43,300 bases of DNA from an uncultured Oscillospiraceae bacterium (GTDB taxonomy: Bacteria; Bacillota; Clostridia; Oscillospirales; Oscillospiraceae), in contig CAZJBT010000002.1 of NCBI GenBank assembly GCA_964544345.1, positions 1 through 43,300 on the forward strand, given 5' to 3'. Numbering within the stretch: the first letter of the stretch is position 1; the number at the start of each line of letters is the position of its first letter. Shown here one piece after another: positions 21,478 to 42,259 of the stretch. A program made the position numbers and the translations under genes. Below the pieces are notes generated by a model that was not told where the DNA came from, searched no databases, and worked only from the letters and a program-made list of their open reading frames with translations.

Positions 21478-21488
21478 GATACTCCTCC

Positions 21489-22382
21489 TCAGTGCTTGAG
21501 CTTCGGGTCGAGCGCGTCGCGCAAGCCGTCGCCCATGACGTTGAAGCCGAACATGGTCAGCATGATCATCACGCCGGGGAAGGTGATCATCGGCCAGAAG
21601 GTGGTGATGAATTCACGTCCGATGTTGAGGATGGAGCCCCACTCCGGCGTGGGCGGCTGGACGCCGAGGCCGATGAAGGACAGACCGGAGATCATCATGA
21701 TATTCGTGCCGATGCGAAGCGTCGAGTCGACGATGATCGGCGAGAGTGTATTTGGGAGGATCTGACGCACAATGATGCGCAGGCTGCCGGAGCCGCGCGC
21801 GCGCGCCGCCTCGACGTATTCCTGCTCGCGGATGGTCAGCACCGTCGCGCGCAGCATACGCGCCGACGGGGCGATGCCGCCGACCGAGACGGCCACGGCC
21901 GTCTGCCAGGTGCCGGTGCCGAGCAGCGCCGAGACAGAGACTGCCATCAGCGTGCCGGGGATGGCCATGATGATATCCATGACGCGCATGACGATCGTCT
22001 CATAGATGCCGCCGAAGTAGCCGGCGGTGGCGCCGAAGATCGAGCCGATGCCGACCGAAATGAGCAGGCCGAGCAGCGAGACGAGCAGCGAAATGCGGCC
22101 GCCGTAGAGGATGCGGGAGAGCAGGTCGCGCCCGTAGTTGTCGGTGCCGAACGGATGCGAGGCGCTCGGCATCAGGAACCGGTCGGCGAACGACTGCTTG
22201 TCGTAGTCATACGGCGCGAGCACATTTGCAAAGATGGCCGAGAGCACGATCAGAACGACGATAACGAGACCCGCCATGGCGAGCTTGTTGCTGCGGAACC
22301 GCTTCCAGATGTCGCGGAGCTGGCTGCGCTTTTTCAGGATCTCCTCCTCACCGGCTTGCACCGGGGCTTTTACTTGAGCCAT
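21489..22382 (-). CDS. Opp/Dpp-type ABC permease (OppC/DppC-like)
   Basis: N-terminal OppC-type helix followed by HPFGTDNYGRDLLSRI and an EAA-like loop EYVEAARA.G. Confidence 0.9.
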   Translation of the reverse strand: MAQVKAPVQAGEEEILKKRSQLRDIWKRFRSNKLAMAGLVIVVLIVLSAIFANVLAPYDYDKQSFADRFLMPSASHPFGTDNYGRDLLSRILYGGRISLLVSLLGLLISVGIGSIFGATAGYFGGIYETIVMRVMDIIMAIPGTLMAVSVSALLGTGTWQTAVAVSVGGIAPSARMLRATVLTIREQEYVEAARARGSGSLRIIVRQILPNTLSPIIVDSTLRIGTNIMMISGLSFIGLGVQPPTPEWGSILNIGREFITTFWPMITFPGVMIMLTMFGFNVMGDGLRDALDPKLKH

Positions 22383-22394
22383 TTGCGCACCTCC

Positions 22395-23381
<987 letters not shown>

Positions 23382-23504
23382 TTGATTCCCTCATTTCATC
23401 AGGCCGGGGCCTAAGACCCCGTACACTGGCCCAATTGCGGGCAAGGCGGATCAGTCGTATGGCTGATCCGCCTTGCGCTGTGTGTCGAACGAATTCAGTT
23501 GTGC

Positions 23505-28458: not shown

Positions 28459-28483
28459 AACGTTTTTCCTTTCTGGATACAGA

Positions 28484-28518
28484 ATAAAATGCGGCGCGGG
28501 AAAGCCGGGCTTTCCCGC
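28484..28518 (-). terminator. Intercistronic terminator-like hairpin between a binding-protein gene and the flavoprotein gene
   Basis: gcgggaaagc / gctttcccgc stem followed on the minus strand by ATTTTATT. Only about 25 nt remain before the next start, so downstream expression needs read-through. Confidence 0.5.
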
Positions 28519-28553
28519 ACCGGTGAAAAAGCTCAATAGATCAACTCAATGAA

Positions 28554-30197
28554 TCAATAGACGAAGGTCACATCGATGCAGGTCGGGTTGGCCGGGTTGC
28601 CCATCGGGAAATCGGCGATCTTGGTGTTGTTCCAGACCAGCATACTGACACGCTCGCAGACGTTGAGTACCATATGCTCGTCGACGAGGAAGTTCTGCAG
28701 GAAGGAGTAGCCCTCGGCGCGGACGTCGGAGTCGACGCTGTTGGTGGCCTTCTCATATGCTTCGTCCCACTCGGGCGTGCTGATGGACATGGCGTCCGTC
28801 GTGGAGGTGGGGGCGTAGTTGGCAAAGACGTTGACCGGGTCGGAGAAGTATGCGCCGTCGATGGTCTCGCCGATCAGGACGTCGCTTTCGCCTTCCTTCC
28901 ACATGCCGATCAGGGTGCCGATGTCATAGGTCTCGACCGTCAGGGTGATGCCGACGGCGGCGAGATACGCCTGCAGCGCCTCGGCGAGAACCTGGTTGCC
29001 GGTATCGGTCAGCAGACGCAGGGTGATATCGCCGTCAGAGTAGCCGGCCTCTTCCAGCAGCTCGCGGGCACGGTCGGGATCGTAGGTGTTGGTGCCGACG
29101 TTCTCATAGAACTGGACGTTGGTGGTGATGATGGAGGTCGCTTCGATCCACAGCGGGCCGTAGTTGGCGATGGCGAGGGATTCGACGTCGACGGCCAGGC
29201 AGAACGCTTCGCGGACGCGCTCGTCGTCAAAGAACGGGCAGGTGTCGCAGAGCTGGATACGGGTGACGTCCTTCGCGGAGATGAGGTCGTACGAGGTGAA
29301 GTCCGCGCAGTCGCCGGCGATGACGCGCTCGGCGTCCATCGCGCTGATGCCGAAGGCGGCGTCGAGCGTGCCGTTCTCAAAGTCGATGTAGAGCGCGGAC
29401 GGCTCGGAGTAGTATTTGTAGGTGACGGTCTCGGCCTGCGGCAGCTCGCCCCAGTACTGGTCGGCGCTCTTGCGCTCATAGGAGATCGTGGAGGCCGCGA
29501 TGTTCTCGGTGCAGATGTACGGGCCGGTGCCGTTCGGATCGTTGAACCAGTCCTCAGCGGTGTAGTTCGCGATATCCTCGGCGCAGAAGATCGCCCAGCA
29601 GGTCAGGTAGCTGATGGCGGGGCCATAGATGCGGTTGAACGCGAAGTAGAGCGTGAGGTCGTCTTCGACATAGCAGTTATCCCAGTCGAAGACCTCCCAG
29701 AAGGTGCTCTCACGGCCAAACTCGTTCCAGGCCTTGTAGGTCTCCATGACGTCGTTCGCGGTCAGCTTCTGGCCGTGGGTGAAGTAGACGTTGTCGCGGA
29801 TCTTGATCTTGATGGTGTAGTCGTCGACGTATTCCACGCTCTCAGCAAGCTGGTACTCAAGCTCGCCGGACGGGAGGACGTCGAGCAGGTACTCGAAGCA
29901 CATGCGGATCTGGGTGGGGTTGTCAGTGTAGGTGCGGAAGTCGAACGTGTCGTTCTTGACCGCGGAGCCGATGACCAGCGAGTAGTCGCCGGACGGTTCG
30001 CCGCCGGACGAAGCCGGCTCGCCGCTGTTGGCCGGCTGCTGGGTGTCGCCGCCGGACGAGGCCGGCTCGCCGCTGTTGGCTGGCTGCTGGGTGTCGCCGC
30101 CGTCCGTATCGCCCTCATCCTTCGAGCAGGCGGAGAGGACAGAAAAAACCATGGCAAGCGCGAGAAGCAGTGCGAGCAATTTCGTGTACTTTTTCAT
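28554..30197 (-). CDS. Family-5 ABC substrate-binding lipoprotein, copy 2, with a repeat-containing linker
   Basis: Lipobox LSACSK and a duplicated 16-aa unit GDTQQPANSGEPASSG after the lipidated Cys. The mature domain is collinear with the other two binding proteins. A GGAGGA RBS lies upstream. Confidence 0.85.
   Translation of the reverse strand: MKKYTKLLALLLALAMVFSVLSACSKDEGDTDGGDTQQPANSGEPASSGGDTQQPANSGEPASSGGEPSGDYSLVIGSAVKNDTFDFRTYTDNPTQIRMCFEYLLDVLPSGELEYQLAESVEYVDDYTIKIKIRDNVYFTHGQKLTANDVMETYKAWNEFGRESTFWEVFDWDNCYVEDDLTLYFAFNRIYGPAISYLTCWAIFCAEDIANYTAEDWFNDPNGTGPYICTENIAASTISYERKSADQYWGELPQAETVTYKYYSEPSALYIDFENGTLDAAFGISAMDAERVIAGDCADFTSYDLISAKDVTRIQLCDTCPFFDDERVREAFCLAVDVESLAIANYGPLWIEATSIITTNVQFYENVGTNTYDPDRARELLEEAGYSDGDITLRLLTDTGNQVLAEALQAYLAAVGITLTVETYDIGTLIGMWKEGESDVLIGETIDGAYFSDPVNVFANYAPTSTTDAMSISTPEWDEAYEKATNSVDSDVRAEGYSFLQNFLVDEHMVLNVCERVSMLVWNNTKIADFPMGNPANPTCIDVTFVY
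30001..30102. repeat. 48-bp in-frame tandem repeat (2.1 copies) inside the binding-protein gene
   Basis: 30001-30048 and 30049-30096 differ at two positions. A partial third copy gccgcc follows. Confidence 0.9.
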
Positions 30198-30336: not shown

Positions 30337-30377
30337 TGATTTTCCCCTATCCTAGTGATTCCTGCCCGGAATAACGC

Positions 30378-30406: not shown

Positions 30407-30510
30407 AGCTGTAAGGTAGGGATTTTGATCTTCAGCATGTCGGCGCACAGCGCCGACATGCGCGGGTATCATAGCTGCAAAGCAGCTATGATACCATGAC
30501 CGCTGGTCTC
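30399..30510. repeat. Mosaic intergenic hairpin element, copy B
   Basis: Contains ggtataatagctg, a perfect 12-bp-stem hairpin at 30435-30461 (gcatgtcggcgc aca gcgccgacatgc), a 12-5-12 palindrome at 30466-30494 and a truncated accatgaccgctggtc module. Confidence 0.8.
30466..30494. promoter_or_regulatory. Perfect 12-5-12 dyad gtatcatagctg caaag cagctatgatac
   Basis: Perfect inverted repeat. The left arm contains a -10-like TATCAT. It lies in the leader of, or upstream of, the LysR gene. Confidence 0.5.
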
Positions 30511-30546
30511 GTATCACGAAAAAAGACGCATAGGAGGCGGAGACAG

Positions 30547-31473
30547 ATGGAAATTGCGCAGCTCCAGTATTTTACCGTACTGGCCAGGACGGAGCACATG
30601 ACAAAGGCGGCGGAGCTTCTGAACATCTCGCAGCCGACGCTGAGCAAGTCGATCTCGAATCTGGAAGCGGAGCTGGGTCTTCCGCTGTTCTCCCGGACGG
30701 GGCACCAGATCTCGCTCAACCACGAGGGGCGCATCCTGCTTCGCTACGCGCAGCTCGTGCTCAAGGATCTCGACGCCGCACGGCAGGTGATGCACGATCT
30801 GTCGACCGGCGTGACCGGCCAGATCGCCATTGGCACGACGATGAGCTTCGATCCGGCCAGCCCGGTGCGCTGCTATCTGGGGGACTTTTTCCTGCGCTAC
30901 CCAAACGTGTCGCAGAAGGTCTACACGCTTGACATGGGTCGGTGTCTTGATTCGCTGCTCGCGGGTCGGTTCAATTTTATTTTCACCATCCGCGTGCCGG
31001 ACACGCCCGGCATCGTCTGGACGCCGCTGTATGAGTCGCACATCGACGCGCTCGTGCCGGAGAGCCACCCGTTCGCGCGGCGCGCGGTGCTCAGTCTTGA
31101 CGACCTGAAGGACGAGCCGCTTCTGTGCAACGTCTCGGTGGCCGACGGCATCGACATCGTGCAGAATCTGGCCAATCAGACCGGCCACGAGCCGAGCCTG
31201 CTCTACGACGGCTATGATATGGAGCTGATCACGAAGGCGGTCGGCCGCGGCTTTGGCGTTGGTCTGGCCACGTCCACCGCGCTGGCGGACTATGCCGAGC
31301 AGCACGGCCTGCTGTCCGGCTCGCAGTCCGTGCGGATCGTCCCGCTGCGTGACGCCAAGCTCAACCGCACGGTCTCCATCGGCCACCGCGTGGATCAGAG
31401 CTTCACGCCGGCTGCGCGCGAGTTCTTTGAAGGTCTCGTCCACTGGTGCCGCCAAAGCGATCCGCAGAGATAG
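30547..31473 (+). CDS. LysR-family transcriptional regulator
   Basis: MEIAQLQYFTVLARTEHMTKAAELLNISQPTLSKSISNLEAELGLPLF. An AGGAGG RBS lies upstream. It is divergent from the binding-protein/flavoprotein genes. Confidence 0.9.
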   Translation: MEIAQLQYFTVLARTEHMTKAAELLNISQPTLSKSISNLEAELGLPLFSRTGHQISLNHEGRILLRYAQLVLKDLDAARQVMHDLSTGVTGQIAIGTTMSFDPASPVRCYLGDFFLRYPNVSQKVYTLDMGRCLDSLLAGRFNFIFTIRVPDTPGIVWTPLYESHIDALVPESHPFARRAVLSLDDLKDEPLLCNVSVADGIDIVQNLANQTGHEPSLLYDGYDMELITKAVGRGFGVGLATSTALADYAEQHGLLSGSQSVRIVPLRDAKLNRTVSIGHRVDQSFTPAAREFFEGLVHWCRQSDPQR

Positions 31474-31571: not shown

Positions 31572-31598
31572 TAAAATAGCTGCTTTGCAGCTATTTTA
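31572..31598. promoter_or_regulatory. Perfect 11-5-11 dyad taaaatagctg ctttg cagctatttta
   Basis: Perfect inverted repeat with the same arms as 31700-31726. It abuts a possible TTGTTT-17-CATACT promoter at 31544-31572. Confidence 0.45.
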
Positions 31599-31676: not shown

Positions 31677-31705
31677 TTTACCATGACCGCAGGTCATGGT
31701 AAAAT
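31677..31705 (+). promoter_or_regulatory. Candidate promoter TTTACC-17-(TGg)TAAAAT for the flavoprotein gene 31773
   Basis: Extended -10 TGGTAAAAT. The -10 hexamer is part of the left arm of the dyad at 31700-31726. Confidence 0.45.
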
Positions 31706-31726
31706 AGCTGTAAAACAGCTATTTTA
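31700..31726. promoter_or_regulatory. Perfect 11-5-11 dyad taaaatagctg taaaa cagctatttta overlapping the -10
   Basis: Perfect inverted repeat, 47 nt upstream of ATG 31773. Confidence 0.5.
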
Positions 31727-31772: not shown

Positions 31773-33281
31773 ATGAAACAGCTTGAGGCAGATGTGATCA
31801 TCGTCGCCGGCGGTATGTCCGGCATCTGCGCCGCGGCGGCCGCGGCGGAAAAAGGCGCGTCGGTGCTCGTCTTTGAAAAGACGAGCACGGTCGGCGGCGC
31901 GGCGAACATGGGCATGGGCTTCTTTGCGGTCGAATCGCATATTCAGAAGGCGAACCTGATCGGTATGACGGTCGACGAGGCGTTCATGCGTTTTATGAAC
32001 TTCAACCACTGGAAGGCGAACGCCGCGCTGGTGCACAAGCTGTTCGCGCAGTCCGGCAGCACGGTCAAATGGATCGAGGATATGGGCGTCGAGTTCCTTG
32101 GCGCGTTCAAGTATTTTGACGATTCCGAGGCGACCTGGCACATCCCGAAGGTGCCCGGCTCGAACAAGCCGGTGCCGCGCTGCGCGGCGATCCTGGTCAA
32201 GGCGATCTACGATTACGCCCTGGCGCTCGGCGTGCAGTTCGTTTTCAACACAACGGTCAAGCAGCTCAAATATGACGGCACGCGCGTCACGGGCGTTCTG
32301 GCTGTCAGCGACGCGGGCGAGGAGTACGATGCGGAGTCCGACGCCGTCATCGTCTGCACCGGCGGCTTCGGCGACGATCCTGAGAAGATCGAGAAGTACA
32401 TGGGCTACCGCCACGGCGAGAACCTGTTCTCCTTCCGCATCCCTGGCCTGAAGGGCGAGGGCATGCAGATGGCGTGGGACATCGGCGCGGCAAAAACGAA
32501 CATGGTCATGGAGATGACCTACGAGACGCCCGCGCGCGTCGGCGGCGCGGCTGTCGACACGATGATGCGCCAGCCGAACCTGATGGTCAATCTGCTCGGC
32601 AAGCGCTTCTTCAACGAGGAGATGATGGCCGTTACGCCGTTCGCCGGCAATGCCATCGCGCAGCAGAAGGACTGTGTCGGCTACTCGCTGATCTCGAGCG
32701 ATATCGTCGAGACCTACCGCGAGACAGGCATCGACTTCAACTCCTATCACAAGCATCTGAACAGCGTCTCGGAGTGGGACGGGGCCGTAAAGAAATATAT
32801 CGAGGGCGGTCAGGTGGCCGAGATGAACGCGCTCATGGGCGTGAAGCGCGAGGAGAAATTTTTCTTCGTGGCCGACTCGGTGGAGGATCTGGCCGGGCAG
32901 CTCGGCGTCGACCCCGCCGCGCTCGGCGAGACCGTCGCGCGCTACAACGCCATGTGCGCGGCCGGCGCGGACGCCGACTTCGGCAAGCAGCGCCGGTACC
33001 TGCGCCCGCTGACCGGCGAGAAATTCTACGCCTGCAAGTACTACCCGTCCGGCTACGGCTCGCTCGGCGGCATCAAGACCGACGAGAACCTCCAGGTCGT
33101 GCGCGAGGACTTCTCGCCGATCCCCGGCCTGTTCTCCGCCGGTACGGACTGCTGCACCATCTTCGGCGACACGTATATGTTCTATTTCCCCGGCTCGACG
33201 ATGGGCTTTGCCATCAACTCCGGCCGCATGGCCGGCTACAACGCGGTGAACTTTATCGACACCTATGCGTTTGGGGACTGA
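31773..33281 (+). CDS. Soluble FAD-dependent oxidoreductase, fumarate-reductase/KstD (FAD_binding_2) family
   Basis: DVIIVAGGMSGICAAAAAAEKGASVLVFEK.STVGG, VIVCTGGFG and the C-terminal IPGLFSAG block. An AAAGGAG RBS lies upstream. Confidence 0.85.
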   Translation: MKQLEADVIIVAGGMSGICAAAAAAEKGASVLVFEKTSTVGGAANMGMGFFAVESHIQKANLIGMTVDEAFMRFMNFNHWKANAALVHKLFAQSGSTVKWIEDMGVEFLGAFKYFDDSEATWHIPKVPGSNKPVPRCAAILVKAIYDYALALGVQFVFNTTVKQLKYDGTRVTGVLAVSDAGEEYDAESDAVIVCTGGFGDDPEKIEKYMGYRHGENLFSFRIPGLKGEGMQMAWDIGAAKTNMVMEMTYETPARVGGAAVDTMMRQPNLMVNLLGKRFFNEEMMAVTPFAGNAIAQQKDCVGYSLISSDIVETYRETGIDFNSYHKHLNSVSEWDGAVKKYIEGGQVAEMNALMGVKREEKFFFVADSVEDLAGQLGVDPAALGETVARYNAMCAAGADADFGKQRRYLRPLTGEKFYACKYYPSGYGSLGGIKTDENLQVVREDFSPIPGLFSAGTDCCTIFGDTYMFYFPGSTMGFAINSGRMAGYNAVNFIDTYAFGD

Positions 33282-33305
33282 TCTGGTTTGCAAGAGGGAG
33301 ACGCC

Positions 33306-34211
33306 ATGAATCTGGAGCTGTTGTCGCATTTTCTCGTCTTTGCGGAGGACATGAGCCTGACCCGCGCGGCGGGGCGGCTGTATCTGACGCAGTCCACGCT
33401 CAGCCGGCAGATGGCCGAGCTGGAGCGGCAGCTCGGCGTGCGGCTTTTCGTGCGGGAAAAGAACGCCATCCGCCTGACGCCGACCGGCCAGCGCCTGGCC
33501 GAGACGGGGCAGGAGCTGCTCGACCACGCCGCGGGGCTTCGCGCCGAGCTCGAGCGCATCGACCGCCGCCAGACACGCCCCGCACTGGCCGTGTGCACGT
33601 TCTCGCTGACCATCGAGGGCTTCAGCCCGGTGTTCGGCGCGTATCATGACGCCTATCCGGATGTGGACGTGTCGCTGCACCCGGCGGAACCGGACGAGAT
33701 CCTTGCGCTCGTCGGCAGCGGCCGGTGCGACCTGGGCTTCACGACCTCGATGGCGCTCGGGCGGCTCTCGCCGGAGGCGCGGGGCGCGCTCAGCGCGCGC
33801 TTCGTGCGGCGCGACGAGCTGCGCGCTGTCGTCAGCGCGGCGCATCCGCTGGCCGGCCGGGCTTCCGTTCGGTGGGAGGAGCTGGCGGACTACCGTCTCG
33901 TCATGCCGCTCGACCGCAGCGCGAACGAGGGTCTGGCCGACGTGCTGCGCGCCCACGGGCTTGATCCGGAACGCATCGAGAAGGGGGAAAACCGCGTCCT
34001 GCGGTTCGCCATGCGCGAGTATGGCGCGGTCGCGCTCATCCTGGGCGGCGCGTTTTTGGACGTCATGACCGACTGTGTCGCGCTGCCGATCGAGGACTGC
34101 GGCGTCACCGCGGAGCTGTACTATGTCTGGCGCTCCGGCCGCACGCGGCCGGAGACCCGCCGCTATCTCGATCTCGTGGAGCTTGAGTTCGGCCCGGCGA
34201 GCGGGGAATAG
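33306..34211 (+). CDS. LysR-family transcriptional regulator
   Basis: MNLELLSHFLVFAEDMSLTRAAGRLYLTQSTLSRQMAELERQLGVRLF. An AGAGGGAG RBS lies upstream. Confidence 0.9.
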   Translation: MNLELLSHFLVFAEDMSLTRAAGRLYLTQSTLSRQMAELERQLGVRLFVREKNAIRLTPTGQRLAETGQELLDHAAGLRAELERIDRRQTRPALAVCTFSLTIEGFSPVFGAYHDAYPDVDVSLHPAEPDEILALVGSGRCDLGFTTSMALGRLSPEARGALSARFVRRDELRAVVSAAHPLAGRASVRWEELADYRLVMPLDRSANEGLADVLRAHGLDPERIEKGENRVLRFAMREYGAVALILGGAFLDVMTDCVALPIEDCGVTAELYYVWRSGRTRPETRRYLDLVELEFGPASGE

Positions 34212-34274
34212 AGCCTCCATGCGAAATTTCGAAGCAGTATGCAGCCTGCGCAGTGGCCGCCACACGGCCTGGCG

Positions 34275-34283
34275 TGGTATGCT
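34275..34283 (+). promoter_or_regulatory. Extended -10 element TGgTATGCT
   Basis: About 55 nt upstream of ATG 34337. No convincing -35. Confidence 0.35.
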
Positions 34284-34336
34284 GAAAAAAAGCCGCGCGG
34301 CGGCGATGCGACTTTGACAAAGAAAGGTGAGATACA

Positions 34337-35173
34337 ATGGCACGTCATCCGCTGATCCCAGAGGAGCTGGCTCTGTCCTACTCGAAGTACTGGTTCCTCA
34401 AATGGCCGGAAAAGAACCCGCTCTCGCAGGAACTGATGCGCGAGCCGATGGATCCGAAGTACATGCTCCCGTTCCAGGAGATCAACCGCCTGCTGGAGCC
34501 GGGCTATCTCGAGCGCGAGCAGGGCTGGTGCGTCTGTGACGACGGCCTCGGCTACCATGCCGACTACATCTGGATGCCCGGCGTCACGGTCGAGATGATC
34601 GACTGGTGGTTCGTCTGGCACTTCTCCGCGCCCAAGACGGTTCCGGCCGGCAACGGCAACCTGCGCTACAAGATCTGGAACCCGAACGAGCATGTGGACA
34701 CGGGCTTCAACGACGAGGCCAGCCGCCTGCGCGCCATCGACGAGTCCATCCCGATGCGCGAGCGGCGCTACGGCGCGAAGAACTTCATCCACGAGACGCT
34801 TGACGGCGGCGAGGGCGACAACATTTTGTTCCTGACCGCTGAGTGCCACGACCCGGTCGAGTTCGGCTTCGATGCGAAGCTGCTCCAGAACCCGGCCAGC
34901 GGCACCGTCATCGCAGGCATCACGACGAACATGCACTGCCCGACCATCTACCAGTTCCGTCCCTACGGCGACGGCGTGGAGATGCGCGTGCGCGACTACT
35001 TCGGCGTTGATTATGTTGAGGGACAGGGTCTTGTCCGCACGCCCGGCTTTGTCGCCGACCCCGTGCAGGTCTACAACAGCGCCCAGCATATCCTGGCCGA
35101 GTATCCGAACCTCGCCCGCTTCCTTCCGAAGCTGTACGCGGAGGAGAGCAACAAGCCCATTGACGCGTATTGA
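34337..35173 (+). CDS. Phloretin hydrolase / 2,4-diacetylphloroglucinol hydrolase (PhlG/Phy) family C-C hydrolase-like protein
   Basis: Length is about 278 aa. The blocks LLEPGYLE.E.GWC, MPGVT.EMIDWWF.WH, LRYKIWNP.EH and C-terminal EYPNLARFLP.LYAE match my recollection of the Eubacterium ramulus Phy / Pseudomonas PhlG family. Not verified by search. Confidence 0.6.
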   Translation: MARHPLIPEELALSYSKYWFLKWPEKNPLSQELMREPMDPKYMLPFQEINRLLEPGYLEREQGWCVCDDGLGYHADYIWMPGVTVEMIDWWFVWHFSAPKTVPAGNGNLRYKIWNPNEHVDTGFNDEASRLRAIDESIPMRERRYGAKNFIHETLDGGEGDNILFLTAECHDPVEFGFDAKLLQNPASGTVIAGITTNMHCPTIYQFRPYGDGVEMRVRDYFGVDYVEGQGLVRTPGFVADPVQVYNSAQHILAEYPNLARFLPKLYAEESNKPIDAY

Positions 35174-35187
35174 TCCAGCTCCGCCAG

Positions 35188-35226
35188 ACGCCCCGGCAGC
35201 GATTTGAGCTGCCGGGGCGTTTTTCT
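35188..35226 (+). terminator. Intrinsic terminator
   Basis: 13-bp stem acgccccggcagc / gctgccggggcgt followed by TTTTCT. Confidence 0.8.
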
Positions 35227-35275
35227 GCCTGTGCGCAGCCATTCCTGTCTGGAATACGCGGCCGGGGAATTGGAA

Positions 35276-35305
35276 TTGCTTCGCGGAACGCCGGGGTGCT
35301 AAGAT
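35276..35305 (+). promoter_or_regulatory. Candidate promoter TTGCTT-18-(TGc)TAAGAT for the binding-protein/tannase pair
   Basis: Extended -10 TGCTAAGAT about 50 nt upstream of ATG 35356. Confidence 0.4.
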
Positions 35306-35355
35306 AAACGCGGACAACGCCGGCGATGCCGGACAAGGAAGGGAGAATTTGTGCA

Positions 35356-36951
35356 ATGAAGAAGATGCTTGCGGCGCTGCTCGCGCTGACGATGGTGCTG
35401 GGACTTGCCGCGTGCGGCTCCGGCGACGCCGGAACAAACGATGCGGAGCAGCCGGCTTCGGTCGGGGACGGCACGTCGGAGACCGGCCAGAACGGCGCAC
35501 GGGACACGGATGGCTCCGCGCAGGAAAAGGACACGACCCTGACGATCGGCACCATGACCGCGCCGATCACCTTCAACAGCTCCGGCGCGGACAGCAATCC
35601 GTACAACGCGATGGTGTTCAACACGCTCATTGATTTTGACGAGGACGGCGAAATCTGCGGCGTCCTGGCCGAAGAATATGCGTATGTAGATGATTACACG
35701 CTGAAGATCACGATCCACGACAACGTGTATTTTACGGAAGGCCAGCACCTGACGGCGGACGACGTGCTCTACAGCCTGCGCTACTGGGCGACTGAAACAG
35801 TCCATTCCGAGTCGTTCAGCGCCTATGATCTCGATGCCAGCTACACAGAGGGCGAAACGGTTCTCTACATCGTCTACAAGGAGCTTTATGGCCCGGCGAT
35901 CACCGATCTCTCCAACTACTTTATCTACAGCCAGGAGTGGATGGAATCCATCTCCGATGATGCCTGGTGGGACAGCCCGAACGGCACCGGCGCATATGTC
36001 TGCACGGCCAATGTCGACGGCCAGTACACCTCGTTTGAGCGCAAGGACGAGTGGTGGGGCGAGCTGCCCGAGTGCACCGCCGTCACCTACAAGTATTACG
36101 GCGAGTCGAGCACCATGTTCATCGACCTTGAGCAGGGCGTACTTGACCTTGCCTACAATGTCTCCAACACCGACGCGGCGCGTCTGATCGCGGGAACGGA
36201 GGAGAACACCGATCTGGTCTATCAGCTCCAGAAGATCAACTCGCCGGCGAATATCAAGTTCTGCGAGGTCTGTGAATACTGGCAGGACGAGCGCGTGCGC
36301 AAGGCGTTTGCGCTGGCCATGGATTATGAGGGGATCGCGACCGCGGCCTTTGGCGAGCTGTGGGTCGAAATGGGCTCCGCTATCGGCGACGGCTGTAATT
36401 ATTACTACGAGGTGGGCGGCTACGAGACCGATCTCGACCGCGCGAAGGAGCTGATGGCCGAGGCCGGCTATGCCGACGGCTTTGAGGTGCGCGCCATCAT
36501 TGTGAACAGCGCCGTCGATATGGCGACGGCCGTCCAGGCCTGCGCCGCGCAAATCGGCATCACGATCCACATCGAGTCGTATGATCCGGGCGTCGCCGTG
36601 CCGATGTGGATCGCCAACGAAACCGATCTGTACATCAGCGCGGGCGCGGAATCGAATGCCACAAAGGATCCGTACTCCAGCCTGAATATCTTCGGCGAGA
36701 CGACGACGATGACCGCCTGCCGCATCACGCAGCCTGAATTCAACGAGTATTTTTACGAGGGTCTGTATACCATCGACCCGGAGGTTCGCGCGGAAGCGTA
36801 CCAGAAGCTGCAGCAGTGGATCTACGACACCTACTGGCTCGTCACCGTCTGCGATCCGACCCGCTGCAACGCGTGGGACGGCACGAAGATCTCGTCTGTC
36901 TACTTCGCCAATCCGGGTCGCCCGGTCGTGACCTATATCCACTTCGCCTGA
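35356..36951 (+). CDS. Family-5 ABC substrate-binding lipoprotein, copy 3 (orphan, adjacent to the tannase gene)
   Basis: Signal peptide with lipobox LAACGS. The mature domain is collinear with the 23505 and 28554 proteins (for example TL.IG, DDYT.KI.I.DNVYFT.GQ.LTA.DV, PNGTG.Y). Confidence 0.85.
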   Translation: MKKMLAALLALTMVLGLAACGSGDAGTNDAEQPASVGDGTSETGQNGARDTDGSAQEKDTTLTIGTMTAPITFNSSGADSNPYNAMVFNTLIDFDEDGEICGVLAEEYAYVDDYTLKITIHDNVYFTEGQHLTADDVLYSLRYWATETVHSESFSAYDLDASYTEGETVLYIVYKELYGPAITDLSNYFIYSQEWMESISDDAWWDSPNGTGAYVCTANVDGQYTSFERKDEWWGELPECTAVTYKYYGESSTMFIDLEQGVLDLAYNVSNTDAARLIAGTEENTDLVYQLQKINSPANIKFCEVCEYWQDERVRKAFALAMDYEGIATAAFGELWVEMGSAIGDGCNYYYEVGGYETDLDRAKELMAEAGYADGFEVRAIIVNSAVDMATAVQACAAQIGITIHIESYDPGVAVPMWIANETDLYISAGAESNATKDPYSSLNIFGETTTMTACRITQPEFNEYFYEGLYTIDPEVRAEAYQKLQQWIYDTYWLVTVCDPTRCNAWDGTKISSVYFANPGRPVVTYIHFA

Positions 36952-36967
36952 CGCAGGAGGGATCGCA

Positions 36968-38341
36968 TTGAAATACATACTTGAGTTTGATTCGTCCTGC
37001 GGCGAGACGAGGAAGCTGACCATGGACGGCATCACGGTCGAATACAGGGAGTTTACCGGATTGTCCTATGTGACCGAGCCGGTCGAACCGCAGTATCAGA
37101 CGATGAATCTGTTCGTGCCGGAGGCATACTACCGCGGCGAGAGCATCCGGGGCTACACGGCGCAGACCGCGCCGATCTTCCTGCCGAACACCGTGGGCGG
37201 CTATATGCCGGGAGAGGCCGACCGGCCGGGGCTTGATTTCTTCGGCCGCGTCAACGCCGCGTTTTACGCGCTCGCTCGCGGCTATGTCGTTGCCTCGCCC
37301 GGCCTGCGCGGACGTACATTGCAGGACGCATCGGGCCGCTACACCGGCAAAGCGCCCGCCTGCATCGTCGACTATAAGGCCGCCGTCCGCTATCTGCGCC
37401 GCAACAGCGGCCGCTTCCCCGGCGACACGGAGAAGATCGTCTCCAACGGCACAAGCGCCGGCGGCGCGCTCTCGGCGCTGCTCGGTGCGACGGGCGATCA
37501 TCCCGATTATGAGCCGTACCTCCGGCAGCTCGGCGCGGCGGACGAGAGCGACCGCATCTATGCCAGCTCCTGCTTCTGCCCGATCATCAACCTTGATCAT
37601 GCCGATATGGCCTATGAGTGGCTGTTCGAAAACGTCACGGAGTATTCCGCGCAGCGCATCGACATGGTGGACAACAAGCCGAACTTTGTTCCGATCAGCG
37701 GGACGCTGACGGACGAGCAGCTCCGCCTGTCCGCGCTGGCGCGGAAGGAGTTCGCGCCGTATCTTGGCTCGCTGCACCTGGCCGGGCCGGACGGCGCGCC
37801 GCTCGATGAGGCAAGCTTCCGCGCGTATTTGAAGCGTCTCGTGATCGAGTCCGCGCAGCGCGCTCTCTCGCGAGGACAGGATCTGAGCGCCCTGGACTGG
37901 ATCACGACGGACGGCGGCAGCGTGCGCGATCTCGACTTTGAAGCGTATTTGCAGTTCAATAAGCGGATGAAGACGCCGCTGCCGTTTGACAGCATTTCGC
38001 TGGATTCTCCGGAAAATGACCTGTTCGGGTCGGAGGACGTCAACTGCCGGCACTTTACGCCGCTCGCCGCATCCATCGGCGGCGGAACGCTGGCCGAGCC
38101 GGAGGTCATTCGCATGATGAATCCGATGAACTACGTCGGTGCGGCCAAGACCGCCCGCCATTGGCGCATCCGCCACGGCGCGGCCGACCGCGACACCTCG
38201 CTGGCGATCCCGGCGCTGTTCACGCTGCTGCTGCGCAGTCGCGGCCTTGAGGTCGACTTCCATGCGCCTTGGGGCATCCAGCACATGGGCGACTATGAGC
38301 TGGACAGCTTGTTCGCCTGGATCGACTCGATCTGTCAATAA
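36968..38341 (+). CDS. tanB: Intracellular tannase (tannin acyl hydrolase, Lactobacillus plantarum TanB-type, alpha/beta hydrolase)
   Basis: Blocks shared end to end with the L. plantarum tannase as I recall it: APIFLPNTVGGY.PG, AP.CIVDYKAA.RYL, ITNGTSAGGA (nucleophile Ser), CPI.NL.HADMAYEW, TPLPFD...SPEN.LFG, HWRIRHGAADRDTS and GDYELDSLFAWIDSICQ at the C-terminus. No signal peptide. TTG start behind an AGGAGGG RBS. Confidence 0.85.
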   Translation: MKYILEFDSSCGETRKLTMDGITVEYREFTGLSYVTEPVEPQYQTMNLFVPEAYYRGESIRGYTAQTAPIFLPNTVGGYMPGEADRPGLDFFGRVNAAFYALARGYVVASPGLRGRTLQDASGRYTGKAPACIVDYKAAVRYLRRNSGRFPGDTEKIVSNGTSAGGALSALLGATGDHPDYEPYLRQLGAADESDRIYASSCFCPIINLDHADMAYEWLFENVTEYSAQRIDMVDNKPNFVPISGTLTDEQLRLSALARKEFAPYLGSLHLAGPDGAPLDEASFRAYLKRLVIESAQRALSRGQDLSALDWITTDGGSVRDLDFEAYLQFNKRMKTPLPFDSISLDSPENDLFGSEDVNCRHFTPLAASIGGGTLAEPEVIRMMNPMNYVGAAKTARHWRIRHGAADRDTSLAIPALFTLLLRSRGLEVDFHAPWGIQHMGDYELDSLFAWIDSICQ

Positions 38342-38408
38342 ACACAGCCGCGGCGTTCCATAGGGGCGCCGCGGCTCTATCGTCTATTGCGGATTGCGTC
38401 CATGCGCG

Positions 38409-38434
38409 GCCGGCCGGTTTGCAAACCGGCCGGC
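38409..38434. promoter_or_regulatory. 26-bp GC-rich perfect palindrome gccggccggtttgcaaaccggccggc abutting the LysR promoter
   Basis: Perfect inverted repeat ending 4 nt before the extended -10 TGaTAAAAT (38439-38447). It could be a terminator for the tannase transcript, an operator at the -35 position, or both. Confidence 0.45.
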
Positions 38435-38471
38435 TATGTGATAAAATAATTCCGCAGAGGTGAAATGCAGA

Positions 38472-39410
38472 ATGGAACTGGAGTACTTATGCGAATTTGT
38501 CGCCGTTGTGGATTGCGGCAGCTTCTCCAGAGCGGCTGAGAAGATCTGCATTTCGCAGTCGTCGCTGTCAAAGCACATCATGGCGCTTGAGCGCGAATTG
38601 GGTCTGAAGCTGATCGACCGAAAGCCGCGCTTGATCGAATTGACGCCGTCCGGCGCGCAGCTTCTGCCGCTGGCGCGGCAGGCGCAGGCGCTCAGCGAGG
38701 CGCTGGCCGCCGCCGTCCGGAAGGAGCGGCATCGCGGCCTGTTGGAGCTGCAGCTTGCGACTGTGCCGGAGATGGCGCAGTATGGCCTGACCGCCGTGCT
38801 GTCCCGGTTCCGGAAGGCTTACCCGGAGGTGGAGCTGATCGTGACCGAATGTGAAAAGCCGGCGGATGCGCTGGCCGGGCTTGCATCCGGCCGCTTTGAG
38901 CTGGCCTTTTCCCGTCGTGTGGAGGATGACTACGGTGACCTGGATTACCTCCGGTTCCGGCCGGACAAGGTCGCGGCGGTGCTGCCTGCGGGGCACCGGC
39001 TCAGCGGAGAGAGGATCATCCCGCTGAAGGCGCTTGAGCACGAGCGGTTTTATCTGCTCGACAGGACGACGGGGCTGCATGATCTGTGCGTCCGGCTCTG
39101 CCGGGAGACGGGGTTTAGCCCGAACGTGGTCTACACGGGGAGCCGGCCGGAGAATATCCTCGGTATGGTCGCGCAGGAGATGGGCGTGGCTCTGCTGATG
39201 CGGCGGCATGCCGACTTCCTGAATTATGTGGGTACGGTGTGCGTGGACATCGAGCCGACCATCGACAGCCCGATCTGCCTGGTGCGGCACGGCGGCCGGC
39301 CGCTCTCCCGGGTGGGCAGACTGTTCTGGGATGCACAGGCCAAGGAGGTGGAGGGGCTGAGCTTTGAGCCGGTTCCAAGGCCGCAGGACGCAGAGGTACA
39401 GATACTATAA
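38472..39410 (+). CDS. LysR-family transcriptional regulator
   Basis: MELEYLCEFVAVVDCGSFSRAAEKICISQSSLSKHIMALERELGLKLI. ATG 38472 behind a GAGGTG RBS is preferred over GTG 38460. Confidence 0.88.
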   Translation: MELEYLCEFVAVVDCGSFSRAAEKICISQSSLSKHIMALERELGLKLIDRKPRLIELTPSGAQLLPLARQAQALSEALAAAVRKERHRGLLELQLATVPEMAQYGLTAVLSRFRKAYPEVELIVTECEKPADALAGLASGRFELAFSRRVEDDYGDLDYLRFRPDKVAAVLPAGHRLSGERIIPLKALEHERFYLLDRTTGLHDLCVRLCRETGFSPNVVYTGSRPENILGMVAQEMGVALLMRRHADFLNYVGTVCVDIEPTIDSPICLVRHGGRPLSRVGRLFWDAQAKEVEGLSFEPVPRPQDAEVQIL

Positions 39411-39423
39411 TAATATTAGGAAC

Positions 39424-39460
39424 GGGAGCCATGTCCGGCGCTGCGCCGGACATGGCTCCC
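39424..39460. terminator. 17-bp-stem hairpin between convergent genes, related to the hairpin-1 module of the mosaic repeats
   Basis: gggagccatgtccggcg ctg cgccggacatggctccc. The core catgtc(c)ggcgc...gcgcc(g)gacatg resembles 30435-30461. Confidence 0.6.
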
Positions 39461-39466
39461 ACTGGT

Positions 39467-40375
39467 TTATTCCGCGTTCAGATCGAGGATCCTGTTGTAA
39501 AATTCAGCGATCTCATACGCTGCGTTCACGCCCTCCGGATATGGCGCGGCGGGATCGGCAAAGCAGTGCATCATATCCTGCCCGAAGTGCAAAAAGACCT
39601 CCACATTGGCCGCGGCCGCGCGTGCGGCCAGACTGACGCAGCCCTCGGCCAAACTCTCGCCGCCGCCGGTCTGGATGAGAAGCGGCGGGAAACCGCGGTA
39701 GTCGCCGTAGATCGGGGAGAGCAGCGGATCGAACCGGTCGGCGCCGGGCGAGTAGGTCTGTTCGATTTTGGGGCATAGCTGCGTGAAAATGTCGCGGCTG
39801 TAAAGCTCGCGCTGATCGTAGCGGATGTCGACCGGCGGCGACGAGCACCAGACGGCCTCCGGCAGCGGCTTGCCCTGCTGCTTGAGCGAGAGCGTCACGC
39901 CGAGCGACAGGCACGCGCCCGCGGACTGTCCGCCGAGCAGGATGCGGGAATAGCCCATATCCCGCAGTCCCTGGTAAAATGCAATGCAGTCGTTCAGCCC
40001 CGCGGGATATGGATGGTATGGCGCGAGGCGGTAGTCAACGGAAAAGCAGGTCACGTTGACCTTGTCGGTCAGGAATTCCAGGATGTCCATGCACTCCATG
40101 GCGGCGCCCTCGGTAAAGCCGCCGCCGTGGATGTGCAACAGCGCGGCGCCGTCCCGGATGCCCGGCCTGGTGAGCGTGATGCCCGGCACGCCGCCGACCG
40201 TCACGGCGCCGCCCGTATAGCCGCGCGGGATCTCCGGAGCCGGGAATTCATATCCCTCCACCATGACCGGCACGCCGGTCGGCCCGATCACGCGCCCGGG
40301 CAGCATCTGATTTTGCCCGATGGGGTCGATGGCCTCGAACGTCTTCAAAAATTCCTGAAATTTTTTGCTTGGCAT
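39467..40375 (-). CDS. Alpha/beta hydrolase, hormone-sensitive-lipase-type carboxylesterase
   Basis: Oxyanion motif HIHGGGF, nucleophile elbow GGQSAGA, C-terminal Asp and His candidates (DPLLSP, MMHCF). A GAGGTG RBS lies upstream. Confidence 0.85.
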   Translation of the reverse strand: MPSKKFQEFLKTFEAIDPIGQNQMLPGRVIGPTGVPVMVEGYEFPAPEIPRGYTGGAVTVGGVPGITLTRPGIRDGAALLHIHGGGFTEGAAMECMDILEFLTDKVNVTCFSVDYRLAPYHPYPAGLNDCIAFYQGLRDMGYSRILLGGQSAGACLSLGVTLSLKQQGKPLPEAVWCSSPPVDIRYDQRELYSRDIFTQLCPKIEQTYSPGADRFDPLLSPIYGDYRGFPPLLIQTGGGESLAEGCVSLAARAAAANVEVFLHFGQDMMHCFADPAAPYPEGVNAAYEIAEFYNRILDLNAE

Positions 40376-40518
40376 TTCACATCACCTCTGCTCTCATTAT
40401 AAGGATCGGCGCGCCGGCAAGCAATTCGGATTCTGCCCCGATGGATTCCTGTTTGGAATAGGGAGACCTTGCGTGGTTTTGCACAAATTCCAACCCGCAA
40501 TTTCGGGAAAATGGCGAA

Positions 40519-40546
40519 TTGAATTCGGCCGGAACTATAGTATACT
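40519..40546 (+). promoter_or_regulatory. Candidate promoter TTGAAT-16-TATACT
   Basis: Lies in an AT-rich stretch about 75 nt upstream of ATG 40622. Confidence 0.4.
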
Positions 40547-40564
40547 AATCGCATGGAACAGCCG

Positions 40565-40600
40565 GCTGGAAGGGTGCAAGCCCCCTTCCAGCCATTTTTT
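40565..40600 (+). terminator. Terminator-like hairpin plus T6 inside the 5' leader of the flavoprotein gene (candidate attenuator)
   Basis: gctggaaggg tgcaagcc cccttccagc followed by caTTTTTT, ending 21 nt before the start codon. No upstream plus-strand gene needs a terminator here. Confidence 0.5.
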
Positions 40601-40621
40601 ACAGGAAAGAGGGAACTTTGT

Positions 40622-42259
40622 ATGAGTTGGAGAACACCGCCCGCGCCGATCGATCCGAAGCTGATCACGCAGACCCGGGAGGCAGACGTCGTCGTCGTGG
40701 GTCTCGGCTACGCCGGTACCGCCGCGCTGCGCGCCGCGCAGGAGGCCGGCGCGTCCGCCGTCGGCATCGAATTCATGAACGAGAAATTTTACCGCTCCTA
40801 CGGCCGCGATTTCGGCCACATCAACTCGAAGTTTTTGGAGCGCCGCGGCGTCCCGAAGGTCGACCCGCTCGACCTGTACAACGAGTGGATGCGCCGCGCC
40901 GGCAACCGCGCCAACGGCGAGCTGGTGATGAAATTCTGCCAGAACTGCGGCGCCGCGTTCGACTGGTTCGTCGACATGATCCCGGATGAGAAGCTGCACG
41001 ACGAGCAGATGGTTCACGTCGCGTTCTGGCCGTCCGGCGCGCAGAATTTCAAGAAGGAGAGCCGCGAGAAGGGCTACTGCGAGATCAACGGATTCCGCTT
41101 TTGGAACGGTACGGCACAGTTCCCGTACGACGACCCGATGGGCTGGAAGGGCTGGCCGACGCTGCCCGACATCTGCAAGGAGAACCACAAGAAGGCGAAG
41201 GAGCTCGGCGCGCAGATCTTCTTCACCACCGAGGCGATGCAGCTCGTCAAGACCGGCGAGCGCGTCACCGGCGTGATCGGCCGCGACCGCCGCACCGGCG
41301 AATATACGCAGTACAACGCGAAAAAAGCGGTTATCCTCGCGTCCGGCGACTTCGCGCAGAATCAGGAGATGCTGCTCGACCTTGCCGTGGATATCACCGA
41401 CCTGTACACGCCGGACGAAAAACCGGCTCGCAACTCCAGCCGCAATGGCCGCGGCCACCAGATGGCGACCTGGATCGGTGCGCGCATGGAGACGCGTCCG
41501 CTGCCCGCGATGAGCGGAAATCAGCTCGCGACCAACGGCGGCTTCGGACAGTTCGGCGCGGTCTGGTTCGATTCCAACGGCCGCCGCTTCTGCAATGAGG
41601 TGTTCGGCGGCATGGAGCTGGCAGGCATGTCCGGCAACCAGACCGTGCGCGGCGAGGTGTTCCGCGTTTTCGATGAGAAGTTCCTGGAGCACGAGCTGTC
41701 CTGGGCGATCCCGTCGCACGGCAGCTTCGATGAGACGAACCCGCGCACGGTGAACCCGCTCCGGGAGCTGGTGGAATACGCAAAAACGCACGACGACGGC
41801 TTCTTCGACAACCACAATCCCGACCCGATGGAGCGCCGCCAGGCGTATTTCGGCCGCACGCCGGAGGAGCTGGCGAAAAACGCCGGCCTGACCGGCGAGG
41901 CCGCCGAGAACCTTGCCGCCGGCATCCGCCGCTACAATGAATTCTGCGCCGCAGGCCGCGACGCTGACTTTGCGCGCGATCCGAAGCTGCTCGACCCGCT
42001 CGAGGGCATGCTCTTCCTCGAGAAGAAGTACGCTTCAAGGTTTGGCCATATGCTCGTTTCGGTCGGCGGCCTGGTCACCGACGGCGACCAGCGCGTGCTC
42101 GATTTGAACTACGACCGGATCCCCGGCCTGTACGCGACGGGCAACTGCTGCGGCCGCCGCTTCGGTTCGCAGTACTTCACGCCGATCGCCGGCGTGTCCA
42201 TCGGCATCGCCGTGACGCTCGGCCGCGAGGCCGGCGCCGCCGCCGCGAAGCTGGGCTGA
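40622..42259 (+). CDS. FAD-dependent oxidoreductase (FAD_binding_2-like), paralogue of 14808-16430
   Basis: MSWRTPPAPI..., DVVVVGLGYAGTAALRAA, GLTGEAAEN, YNEFCAAGRDADF, IPGLYATGNCCGRRFG...PIAGVSIG. The start is at ATG 40622 behind an AGAGGGA RBS. Confidence 0.82.
   Translation: MSWRTPPAPIDPKLITQTREADVVVVGLGYAGTAALRAAQEAGASAVGIEFMNEKFYRSYGRDFGHINSKFLERRGVPKVDPLDLYNEWMRRAGNRANGELVMKFCQNCGAAFDWFVDMIPDEKLHDEQMVHVAFWPSGAQNFKKESREKGYCEINGFRFWNGTAQFPYDDPMGWKGWPTLPDICKENHKKAKELGAQIFFTTEAMQLVKTGERVTGVIGRDRRTGEYTQYNAKKAVILASGDFAQNQEMLLDLAVDITDLYTPDEKPARNSSRNGRGHQMATWIGARMETRPLPAMSGNQLATNGGFGQFGAVWFDSNGRRFCNEVFGGMELAGMSGNQTVRGEVFRVFDEKFLEHELSWAIPSHGSFDETNPRTVNPLRELVEYAKTHDDGFFDNHNPDPMERRQAYFGRTPEELAKNAGLTGEAAENLAAGIRRYNEFCAAGRDADFARDPKLLDPLEGMLFLEKKYASRFGHMLVSVGGLVTDGDQRVLDLNYDRIPGLYATGNCCGRRFGSQYFTPIAGVSIGIAVTLGREAGAAAAKLG

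Follow-up and report, generated by a model that had tools for sequence, protein, structure and literature searches.

The question raised by this locus is whether a tannase and a phloretin-hydrolase-like enzyme (here termed the Phy-like hydrolase), encoded near each other in a 43.3-kb stretch of DNA from an uncultured gut Oscillospiraceae, belong to one degradative system. The window is the whole of this stretch, and Pfam and NCBIfam scans show it as an island rich in paralogous genes for redox enzymes, hydrolases and uptake. A preliminary description had suggested that the tannase, the Phy-like hydrolase, a lipoprotein substrate-binding protein (SBP) and a flavoprotein reductase form a single substrate-inducible module, possibly an operon, for plant phenolics. 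Gene frames were chosen by frame selection based on GC content at third codon positions, families were assigned by Pfam and NCBIfam profile searches, and the Pfam scan covered 29 called genes. All genes listed earlier were recovered with the same positions and families, but the single operon was not upheld. The explanation that we favor, as probable rather than firm, is a row of independently regulated and independently assorting cassettes in an accessory island, each consisting of a LysR-type regulator gene, a gene for a cytoplasmic enzyme and in some cases a lipoprotein SBP gene, the tannase cassette serving to import and hydrolyze phenolic esters. Unit 1 (31773-35225) would comprise the flavoprotein gene FADb2_d, the regulator gene LysR_2 and the Phy-like gene, and would be closed by a strong terminator. 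Unit 2 (35241-40460) would be the tannase cassette, with the binding protein gene SBP5_3, the tannase gene, LysR_3 and an esterase gene of the hormone-sensitive lipase (HSL) type. Members of families with characterized plant-phenolic enzymes are present in the island, namely the tannase, the Phy-like hydrolase, VprA-like and Fe-S flavin reductases and the HSL esterase; the polyphenol theme of the preliminary description was retained to this extent, as a theme drawn from family membership, but not its joint module.

Linkage between the two hydrolase genes

The Phy-like gene is followed directly after its stop by an intrinsic terminator on the plus strand (35188-35225) with a 13-bp GC-rich stem and a U-tract. 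Its folding energy is -40.5 kcal/mol (z -4.85), and none of 200 shuffled sequences folded as well. In the spacer between LysR_2 and the Phy-like gene no significant structure is predicted (z 0.13), and FADb2_d, LysR_2 and the Phy-like gene may form one transcript ending at 35188-35225. An analogous hairpin with a T-run follows the Phy-like gene of the closest relative (L001). The nearest genomes are metagenome-assembled genomes (MAGs) of uncultured gut Oscillospiraceae, several of them from Hadza and Nepali gut metagenomes, with Phy-like identities of 95% (L001), 92% (L003) and 61% (L004).

In L001 the segment 35175-40622 is absent, i.e. the 5.4 kb that carry SBP5_3, the tannase, LysR_3 and the esterase. 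On both sides of this gap, up to 35174 and from 40622 onward, L001 and the window share about 80% nucleotide identity; a 177-bp spacer separates the two aligned parts of L001, and the L001 Phy-like gene runs directly to the orthologue of the flavoprotein gene at 40623. Synteny between L001 and the window extends over FADb2_d, LysR_2 and the Phy-like gene. In L002 and L003 (92-93%) the Phy-like gene is divergent from a LysR_0 orthologue and stands beside an ABC transporter, and other island genes are inverted and reshuffled. Around 35175-40622 only short, chance-level direct or inverted repeats were found, and no transposase or integrase reading frame was seen. Two of the relatives, L002 (CAVFYN010000146.1) and L010 (CAVLAO010000028.1), are labelled Bacteroidaceae or Bacteroides sp. 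The island genes of L002 have about 83-87% nucleotide identity to the Oscillospiraceae window and this contig looks mis-binned in its MAG; L010, with a Phy-like homologue of 43% identity and a Clostridia-type LysR neighbor, may be mis-binned too.

Neighbors within 3 kb were counted in two surveys. Among 83 tannase-B loci (45-73% identity), LpdB was found in 27, UbiD/LpdC in 24, LysR in 18 and a family-5 SBP (SBP5) in three, while Phy/PhlG and FAD_binding_2 were found in none. Among 79 Phy/PhlG family loci, LysR was found in 22, including every close gut relative with enough flanking sequence, SBP5 in three and tannase in none. Because of these counts, the conserved unit of each hydrolase family is 'LysR plus enzyme', and the two hydrolases are not conserved partners of one another.

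The operator-like motifs also differ between the units. In the 43.3 kb there are exactly three ATTCC-N5-GGAAT palindromes (0.13 expected), all of them intergenic and in promoter regions: ATTCCTGCCCGGAATA at 30358-30373, in the divergent region between SBP5_2 and LysR_1; ATTCCTGTCTGGAATA at 35241-35256, 100 nt upstream of the SBP5_3 ATG; and ATTCCTGTTTGGAATA at 40445-40460, 70 nt upstream of the esterase start and inside the segment absent from L001. There are no other TTCC-N5-GGAA sites in the 43.3 kb. Two of the three sites bracket the tannase cassette, near both ends, and none lies upstream of FADb2_d or of the Phy-like gene. The L001 orthologue (6326) of the 30358 site keeps both half-sites with a different spacer. 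A 19-bp palindrome, ATAGCTG-N5-CAGCTAT, is present in three exact copies (30471-30489, 31576-31594 and 31704-31722; 0.08 expected) that flank LysR_1, two in the FADb2_d promoter region and one just upstream of LysR_1. It was not found in L001 or L003 and was rejected as a conserved operator for this reason. It represents either a set of operators specific to this strain or a small repeat element. Hairpins CATGTCGGCGCAC.GCGCCGAC near these palindromes are duplicated at about 30437 and about 31606.

The alternative that the tannase, the Phy-like hydrolase, SBP5_3 and the flavoprotein form one substrate-inducible module, acting on shared substrates such as galloylated flavonoids and dihydrochalcones with both routes feeding the phloroglucinol pathway, draws on the adjacency of the genes, all on the plus strand of one island, on the synteny of FADb2_d, LysR_2 and the Phy-like gene in L001 as well, and on the position of both enzyme families upstream of phloroglucinol in known anaerobic routes (PMC10470551). 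It is nevertheless very unlikely, because four independent lines speak against it: the strong terminator between the Phy-like gene and SBP5_3; the distribution among relatives, as L001 lacks the cassette and L002 and L003 have the Phy-like gene in another place; the lack of any co-occurrence in the 83 and 79 surveyed loci; and the different operator-like motifs of the units. Also, no phloroglucinol-pathway or gallate-decarboxylase Pfam family was found among the window genes scanned, and the window was rejected as a carrier of the downstream phloroglucinol pathway or of a gallate decarboxylase. At the level of pathways a biochemical link between tannase and Phy does exist, as phloroglucinol is the point where the tannin and flavonoid routes meet (PMC10470551). 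The adjacency of tannase and phloretin hydrolase in the window is a strain-specific juxtaposition of cassettes and should not be annotated as a pathway operon.

The tannase, the Phy-like hydrolase and the cassette genes

The gene at 36968-38341 (+ strand) encodes a predicted intracellular galloyl-ester hydrolase, a subtype B tannase, as recognized earlier. It scores 584.2 bits with NF041556 (cutoff 300) over profile positions 1-463 of 463, and its best PDB matches are 7q6y (E 1.5e-133) and the Lactiplantibacillus plantarum tannase 3wa6 (E 6e-127), with residues 7-457 aligned to residues 7-469 of 3wa6, i.e. over the full length. The catalytic triad S163, D419 and H451 (L. plantarum numbering) is identical in a phmmer alignment to 3wa6. 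K343, E357 and D421 (same numbering), which bind the galloyl hydroxyls in the L. plantarum enzyme, are conserved within RMK, SPEN and DRD, and K335 and E349 of the window protein (equivalent to K343 and E357) are invariant in 15 homologues. The GTSAGG and HWRIRHGAADRDTS...GDY motifs noted before are present, with GTSAG at residue 161. The protein has no signal peptide and is predicted to be cytoplasmic. Its closest database homologue is only 73% identical (L080) and also has 457 amino acids. A start at ATG 37022, implied by the 439-residue version in the protein database, was rejected; TTG 36968 is preferred because TanB homology begins at residue 7, the 73% homologue has 457 residues and an AGGAGG ribosome-binding site lies 7 nt ahead of the TTG. 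By its sequence this tannase adds a fairly divergent new member to a well-characterized family, and its genomic setting is non-canonical. UbiD/LpdC, LpdB and LpdD families were not found among the 29 window genes scanned, and the canonical cluster, in which a UbiD-type gallate decarboxylase lies beside the tannase, is not seen here. A literature search on tannase, LysR and gallate decarboxylase returned no paper.

A 14-bp GC-rich hairpin (38346-38376, + strand; -30 kcal/mol, z -3.9) with a poor U-tract follows the tannase stop and is a probable, weak terminator. LysR_3 (38460-39410, + strand) has its own promoter-like site at 38418-38447, and its product is 34% identical (E 1e-44) to the LysR protein of a LysR-LpdC-LpdB-LpdD-tannase cluster (L082). 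The HSL-type (family IV) carboxylesterase gene on the minus strand (39467-40375), which the preliminary description had correctly placed downstream, is part of the tannase cassette; the protein matches PF07859 with 138.7 bits, carries HGG83 and GQSAG149 motifs and is similar to EstD11 in the PDB (E 1e-40). Between the convergent LysR_3 and esterase genes lies a perfect 17/18-bp palindromic hairpin (39424-39460; -38.6 kcal/mol, z -7.45), a predicted bidirectional terminator. At the right edge of the variable segment is FADb2_e (40623-42259, + strand; PF00890, 113 bits), which encodes a cytoplasmic FAD_binding_2 reductase 55% identical to a paralogue at 14808-16520. Its start was moved from 40553 to 40623, where the ATG and N-terminus match L001 at 11016, and the region 40553-42259 scores 109 bits with the VprA profile (cutoff 600). 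An 11-bp GC-rich hairpin followed by U6 (40564-40603, + strand; z -3.2) lies between a promoter-like site at 40519-40546 and the ATG of FADb2_e, and no hairpin occurs at the equivalent place in L001. Its possible roles are attenuation or riboswitch-like control; alternatively, it may be the remnant of a terminator that arrived with the cassette.

The Phy-like gene (34337-35173, + strand) encodes a protein of 278 amino acids that matches DAPG_hydrolase (PF18089) with 147 bits (cutoff 22.7) over profile positions 2-223 of 223. The PDB matches are the Mycobacterium abscessus phloretin hydrolase 5xe5 (E 7e-24) and the Pseudomonas 2,4-diacetylphloroglucinol hydrolase PhlG, 3hwp (E 2e-18). Residues H119, E153, H251 and E255 align with the His/Glu/His/Glu zinc ligands of 5xe5; among 31 homologues H119, H251 and E255 never vary, and at least 90% have E153. 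The AlphaFold 2 model has a mean predicted local distance difference test (pLDDT) score of 95.3, and Foldseek aligned it to 5xe5 with a template modelling (TM) score of 0.78 (E 3e-21) and to 3hwp with 0.74, the next matches being at about 0.4. The profile and structure comparisons of both hydrolases, proposed as a check in the preliminary description, thus gave significant family matches, and the assignment of this protein as PhlG/Phy-type holds. It is a new PF18089 member and, from profile, residues and modelled fold, a predicted zinc-dependent hydrolase of the retro-Friedel-Crafts type in the Phy/PhlG family, a putative acylphloroglucinol hydrolase. With 70.4 bits against the PhlG equivalog NF047887 (cutoff 600) it is not a PhlG orthologue, and it is slightly nearer to the M. 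abscessus Phy than to PhlG by both sequence and fold. Its identity to characterized members is only 23-28%. The two characterized Phy enzymes, from Eubacterium ramulus and M. abscessus, share only about 30% identity (PMC8398226), a distance like that seen here, and for this reason phloretin as the substrate is neither proven nor excluded at 28% identity. The most likely reaction of the protein is cleavage of the C-C bond to the acyl group in a phloretin-like acylphloroglucinol. The clade is rare, with 43 clusters in 5.8 billion proteins at E <= 1e-5, mostly from gut-metagenome Oscillospiraceae and Clostridia. Two or three tandem Phy/PhlG paralogues, often with LysR directly downstream, occur in L007 (7024-7824 and 10001-10831) and also in L020, L022, L026 and L030, which indicates diversification of substrate range in the family. 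In two separate lineages, one of 43% identity (L011, 8516-15922) and one of 92-93% (L002, L003), the Phy-like gene adjoins a complete family-5 ABC transporter, and uptake of Phy substrates may also be SBP-dependent in this group.

Binding proteins and predicted uptake

The first gene of the tannase cassette, SBP5_3 (35356-36951, + strand; reading frame open from 35326), encodes a family-5 lipoprotein SBP. It matches SBP_bac_5 (PF00496) with 164.7 bits, its N-terminus MKKMLAALLALTMVLGLAAC carries an LGLAAC lipobox, and the protein-database version starts at 35356 and has 531 amino acids. The AlphaFold 2 model (pLDDT 87.9) has the two-lobe SBP fold, with TM scores of 0.80 to 5u4o and 0.81 to 1uqw. 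The gap of 16 nt between the SBP stop at 36951 and the tannase TTG at 36968, which had been noted before, is real. SBP5_3 and the tannase are probably co-transcribed because of this gap, the ribosome-binding site and the lack of a terminator between them. A complete Opp/Dpp-type family-5 importer is encoded on the minus strand at 19483-25094 (SBP_bac_5, two BPD_transp_1 genes, ABC_tran and oligo_HPY). It consists of the lipoprotein SBP5_1 (23505-25094), permeases at 22395-23381 and 21489-22382 and a fused double ATPase at 19483-21477, in which ABC_tran and oligo_HPY are each found in two stretches. The preliminary description had called the binding protein beside the tannase an orphan. No permease gene lies beside SBP5_3 within 31-43 kb of the window and the nearest set is at 19483-23381, but the protein is an orphan only locally, given the complete transporter at 19483-25094, which holds the only permease set in the window. 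A third SBP gene, SBP5_2 (28554-30197), is paired with a gene for a BaiCD/BilR-type Fe-S flavin ene-reductase (26377-28536; together 26377-30197, minus strand) and lies 17 nt upstream of it, the same architecture as in SBP5_3 and the tannase. SBP5_2 and SBP5_3 are 38% identical, the three window SBPs are mutually 30-38% identical, and all three have lipoboxes. The linker of SBP5_2 after the lipobox contains a tandemly duplicated low-complexity segment, GDTQQPANSGEPASSGG, probably a flexible tether.

The SBP5_3 lineage is rare, with four clusters above 50% identity in 5.8 billion proteins, and a metagenome scan with the single SBP5_3 protein matched 59 patterns with no relative among them. Homologues of 53-55% identity lie directly behind a same-strand Abhydrolase_3 esterase gene in all three retrievable contigs (L083, L085 and L086), the esterase in L083 being 48% identical to the window HSL esterase; a further homologue (P0166, 56%) was not placed on any contig. 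SBP_bac_5 genes stand on either side of the closest tannase homologue (L080). A set of SBP5, two permease and two ATPase genes precedes the tannase gene of L145, which represents an unrelated low-GC lineage, and on a shorter contig (L108) permease and ATPase genes stand ahead of the tannase gene.

SBP5_3 would capture a galloyl or related phenolic ester outside the cell and hand it to the sole nearby family-5 permease/ATPase set (19483-23381), shared with SBP5_1 and SBP5_2. The cytoplasmic tannase, possibly together with the HSL esterase, would then hydrolyze the imported ester. LysR_3 or LysR_1 would control the cassette through the ATTCC-N5-GGAAT boxes before the SBP-tannase pair and before the esterase. 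Import of the substrate is needed since the tannase is cytoplasmic. Several SBPs may share one ABC permease, as in HisJ and ArgT with HisQMP or in bacteria with multiple OppA proteins. To our knowledge, the uptake of tannins, catechin gallates and other phenolic esters by gut anaerobes before intracellular hydrolysis has been little described, and, by their titles and abstracts, the papers returned by a full-text search linking tannase, gallate and ABC-transporter binding proteins describe no such system. The unusual part of the locus is the tannase cassette, which has an SBP of its own and a second esterase but no decarboxylase. The pairing of tannase and SBP, with relatives of the SBP beside esterases, offers a directly testable uptake hypothesis.

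Another view is that SBP5_3 has nothing to do with the tannase substrate and serves as an SBP for peptides, metal chelates or another nutrient, or as a sensor, the esters entering otherwise. The top NCBIfam matches of SBP5_3 are nickel and oligopeptide SBPs (85 bits, far under the cutoffs), its structural neighbors bind diverse non-phenolic ligands, and most tannase loci lack an SBP gene. We consider this view unlikely in light of the probable co-transcription, the recurrence of the lineage directly beside esterases in three independent contigs, the similar operon of the paralogue SBP5_2 with an enzyme, and the import that a cytoplasmic tannase requires.

Several points weigh against the cassette explanation that we favor. 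Only three sites and one orthologue underlie the operator motif, and the difference from L001 could have arisen by deletion of the cassette there instead of insertion here. An SBP5 gene within 3 kb was found in only three of 83 tannase loci, to which L108 adds only permease and ATPase genes upstream, and SBP5 genes are numerous in the lineage, so that some adjacency is possibly chance. Assignment of a ligand class to SBP5_3 from sequence and fold was rejected, as its solved neighbors are at most 21% identical (15-21%) and have peptides, glutathione, Ni-chelates, opines or sialic acid as their ligands. The Pfam scan of the called window genes brought up no gallate decarboxylase. The proximity of the genes in one island and the convergence of tannin and flavonoid routes on phloroglucinol (PMC10470551) also leave room for a loose functional linkage of the two units.

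A broader proposal, which we offer tentatively and hold to be rather doubtful, is that a previously unrecognized lineage of family-5 (Opp/Nik-type) SBPs is dedicated in Gram-positive gut anaerobes to the import of intact phenolic esters, for instance galloyl esters (epigallocatechin gallate, methyl gallate) or esters of the chlorogenate type. Every SBP would be encoded with the cytoplasmic esterase, tannase or reductase that processes its cargo, and several SBPs would work on one permease. If true, this would be a modular 'polyphenol utilization' design with a logic analogous to that of polysaccharide utilization loci.

Reductases, island setting and known systems

The island encodes nine flavin reductases. 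Four are BaiCD/BilR/enoate-reductase-type Fe-S flavoenzymes (1273-3375, 10383-12416, 16620-18719 and 26377-28536), and five are FAD_binding_2 reductases (5672-7246, 7301-8995 with an N-terminal ferredoxin domain, 14808-16520, 31773-33281 and 40623-42259). All nine score under every curated equivalog cutoff, and VprA is the top NCBIfam match for four of the five FAD_binding_2 reductases. FADb2_d (31773-33281, + strand), described before as a fumarate-reductase-type flavoprotein and confirmed as such by PF00890 (156.8 bits), is cytoplasmic and VprA-like; it scores 287 bits with the VprA profile NF053717 (cutoff 600), matches flavocytochrome c3 in the PDB (E 7e-35), has no signal peptide and is a probable C=C reductase. 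FADb2_d and FADb2_e share the superfamily of VprA. LysR_2 (33288-34211, + strand) follows 6-24 nt behind it, its likely start being ATG 33306, and the FADb2_d-LysR_2 pair is retained in L001. A pairing of FADb2_d with the Phy-like enzyme, in which the enone would be reduced and the product then cleaved, is possible but weak, since the synteny of the two genes is confined to the window and L001. LysR_1 (30496-31473, + strand; HTH_1 and LysR_substrate in Pfam) probably starts near 30547. The earlier count of two LysR regulators stood in that LysR genes are present, but five are found in the window and three of them in or beside the studied block.

An Amidohydro_2 protein and a CoA-transferase are also encoded in the island, and signal peptides are absent from every enzyme checked. 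The Amidohydro_2 gene (PF04909; 13725-14792, minus strand) has no NCBIfam match and closes a long minus-strand gene array; in L003 it adjoins the SBP5_2/ene-reductase pair. The family includes non-oxidative aromatic-acid decarboxylases, and the protein could substitute for the gallate or hydroxybenzoate decarboxylase that is missing. The reading frame at 8785-10320 (+ strand) encodes a GltD-like Fe-S NAD(P)H oxidoreductase of the dihydropyrimidine-dehydrogenase type. As listed it shares about 210 nt with the 3' end of 7301-8995, and its true start is probably later; the product may be an electron-input subunit for the adjoining reductases. The reductase-rich window resembles high-reductase genomes reported in other gut families, here in an Oscillospiraceae host.

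A third conceivable use of the locus is the supply of electron acceptors, in place of tannin catabolism as such: the tannase and the HSL esterase would free phenolic acids, such as hydroxycinnamates from chlorogenate-type esters, which FADb2_d and FADb2_e would reduce as an electron sink. Five FAD_binding_2 reductases (four with VprA as top match) and four Fe-S ene-reductases lie in the window, FADb2_e is divergent from the esterase gene with a common intergenic region, and the window genes scanned yielded no gallate decarboxylase. Published work on gut bacteria (bioRxiv 10.1101/2022.12.26.521950) describes flavin reductases with a neighboring regulator that are induced by their substrates and reduce cinnamates, chlorogenate among them. 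However, the galloyl-specific K343, E357 and D421 are intact in the tannase, FADb2_e holds its place in L001 without the cassette, and the reductases, being cytoplasmic, carry none of the export signals typical of respiratory-type enzymes, so this use appears improbable.

Several parts of the island have known counterparts. The window tannase has the same triad and galloyl-binding residues as L. plantarum TanB (PDB 3wa6/4j0c) and, like it, no signal peptide. In L. plantarum tanR, the gallate transporter gene gacP and the gallate decarboxylase genes are linked (PMC8004764). A LysR gene adjoins the window tannase, as it does among the L. plantarum partners. A LysR gene was also seen in L082 and in 17 other tannase loci, and we take tanR to be of the LysR type. 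Unlike in 24-27 of the 83 surveyed tannase loci, no UbiD/LpdC, LpdB or LpdD gene is nearby, and unlike in the L. plantarum setting the tannase gene is the second gene after a family-5 lipoprotein SBP and an HSL esterase is added. The Phy-like protein shares with Phy and PhlG the DAPG_hydrolase domain, a similar length, the His/Glu/His/Glu zinc ligands and the fold, but it is distant from the characterized members and far under the PhlG cutoff.

The L. plantarum vinylphenol reductase VprA is the best curated match of most of the FAD_binding_2 reductases of the window, and the hydroxycinnamate reductase HcrB is presumably a further relative of VprA-type reductases. Cassettes of a substrate-induced flavin reductase and an adjacent regulator are described in Eggerthella, Holdemania and Sutterella, where they reduce cinnamates, chlorogenate included (bioRxiv 10.1101/2022.12.26.521950). 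As in these, many paralogous FAD_binding_2 reductases are present in the window and several stand beside a transcription regulator. The differences are that the host belongs to the Oscillospiraceae, which is not among the three highlighted families, that the regulators are LysR-type, that hydrolases and lipoprotein SBPs are included, that FADb2_d and FADb2_e (the two with N-termini checked) are cytoplasmic and that the scores are under the equivalog cutoffs. An uncultured member of the Oscillospiraceae thus carries a regulator-reductase arsenal of the kind recently described in Eggerthellaceae, Erysipelotrichaceae and Burkholderiaceae. With regard to transport, the three paralogous SBPs and the single permease/ATPase set resemble HisJ and ArgT with HisQMP and would share the permease in the same manner; in contrast to that system, two of the three window SBPs are in a probable operon with a cytoplasmic catabolic enzyme (tannase or ene-reductase) and not with the transporter.

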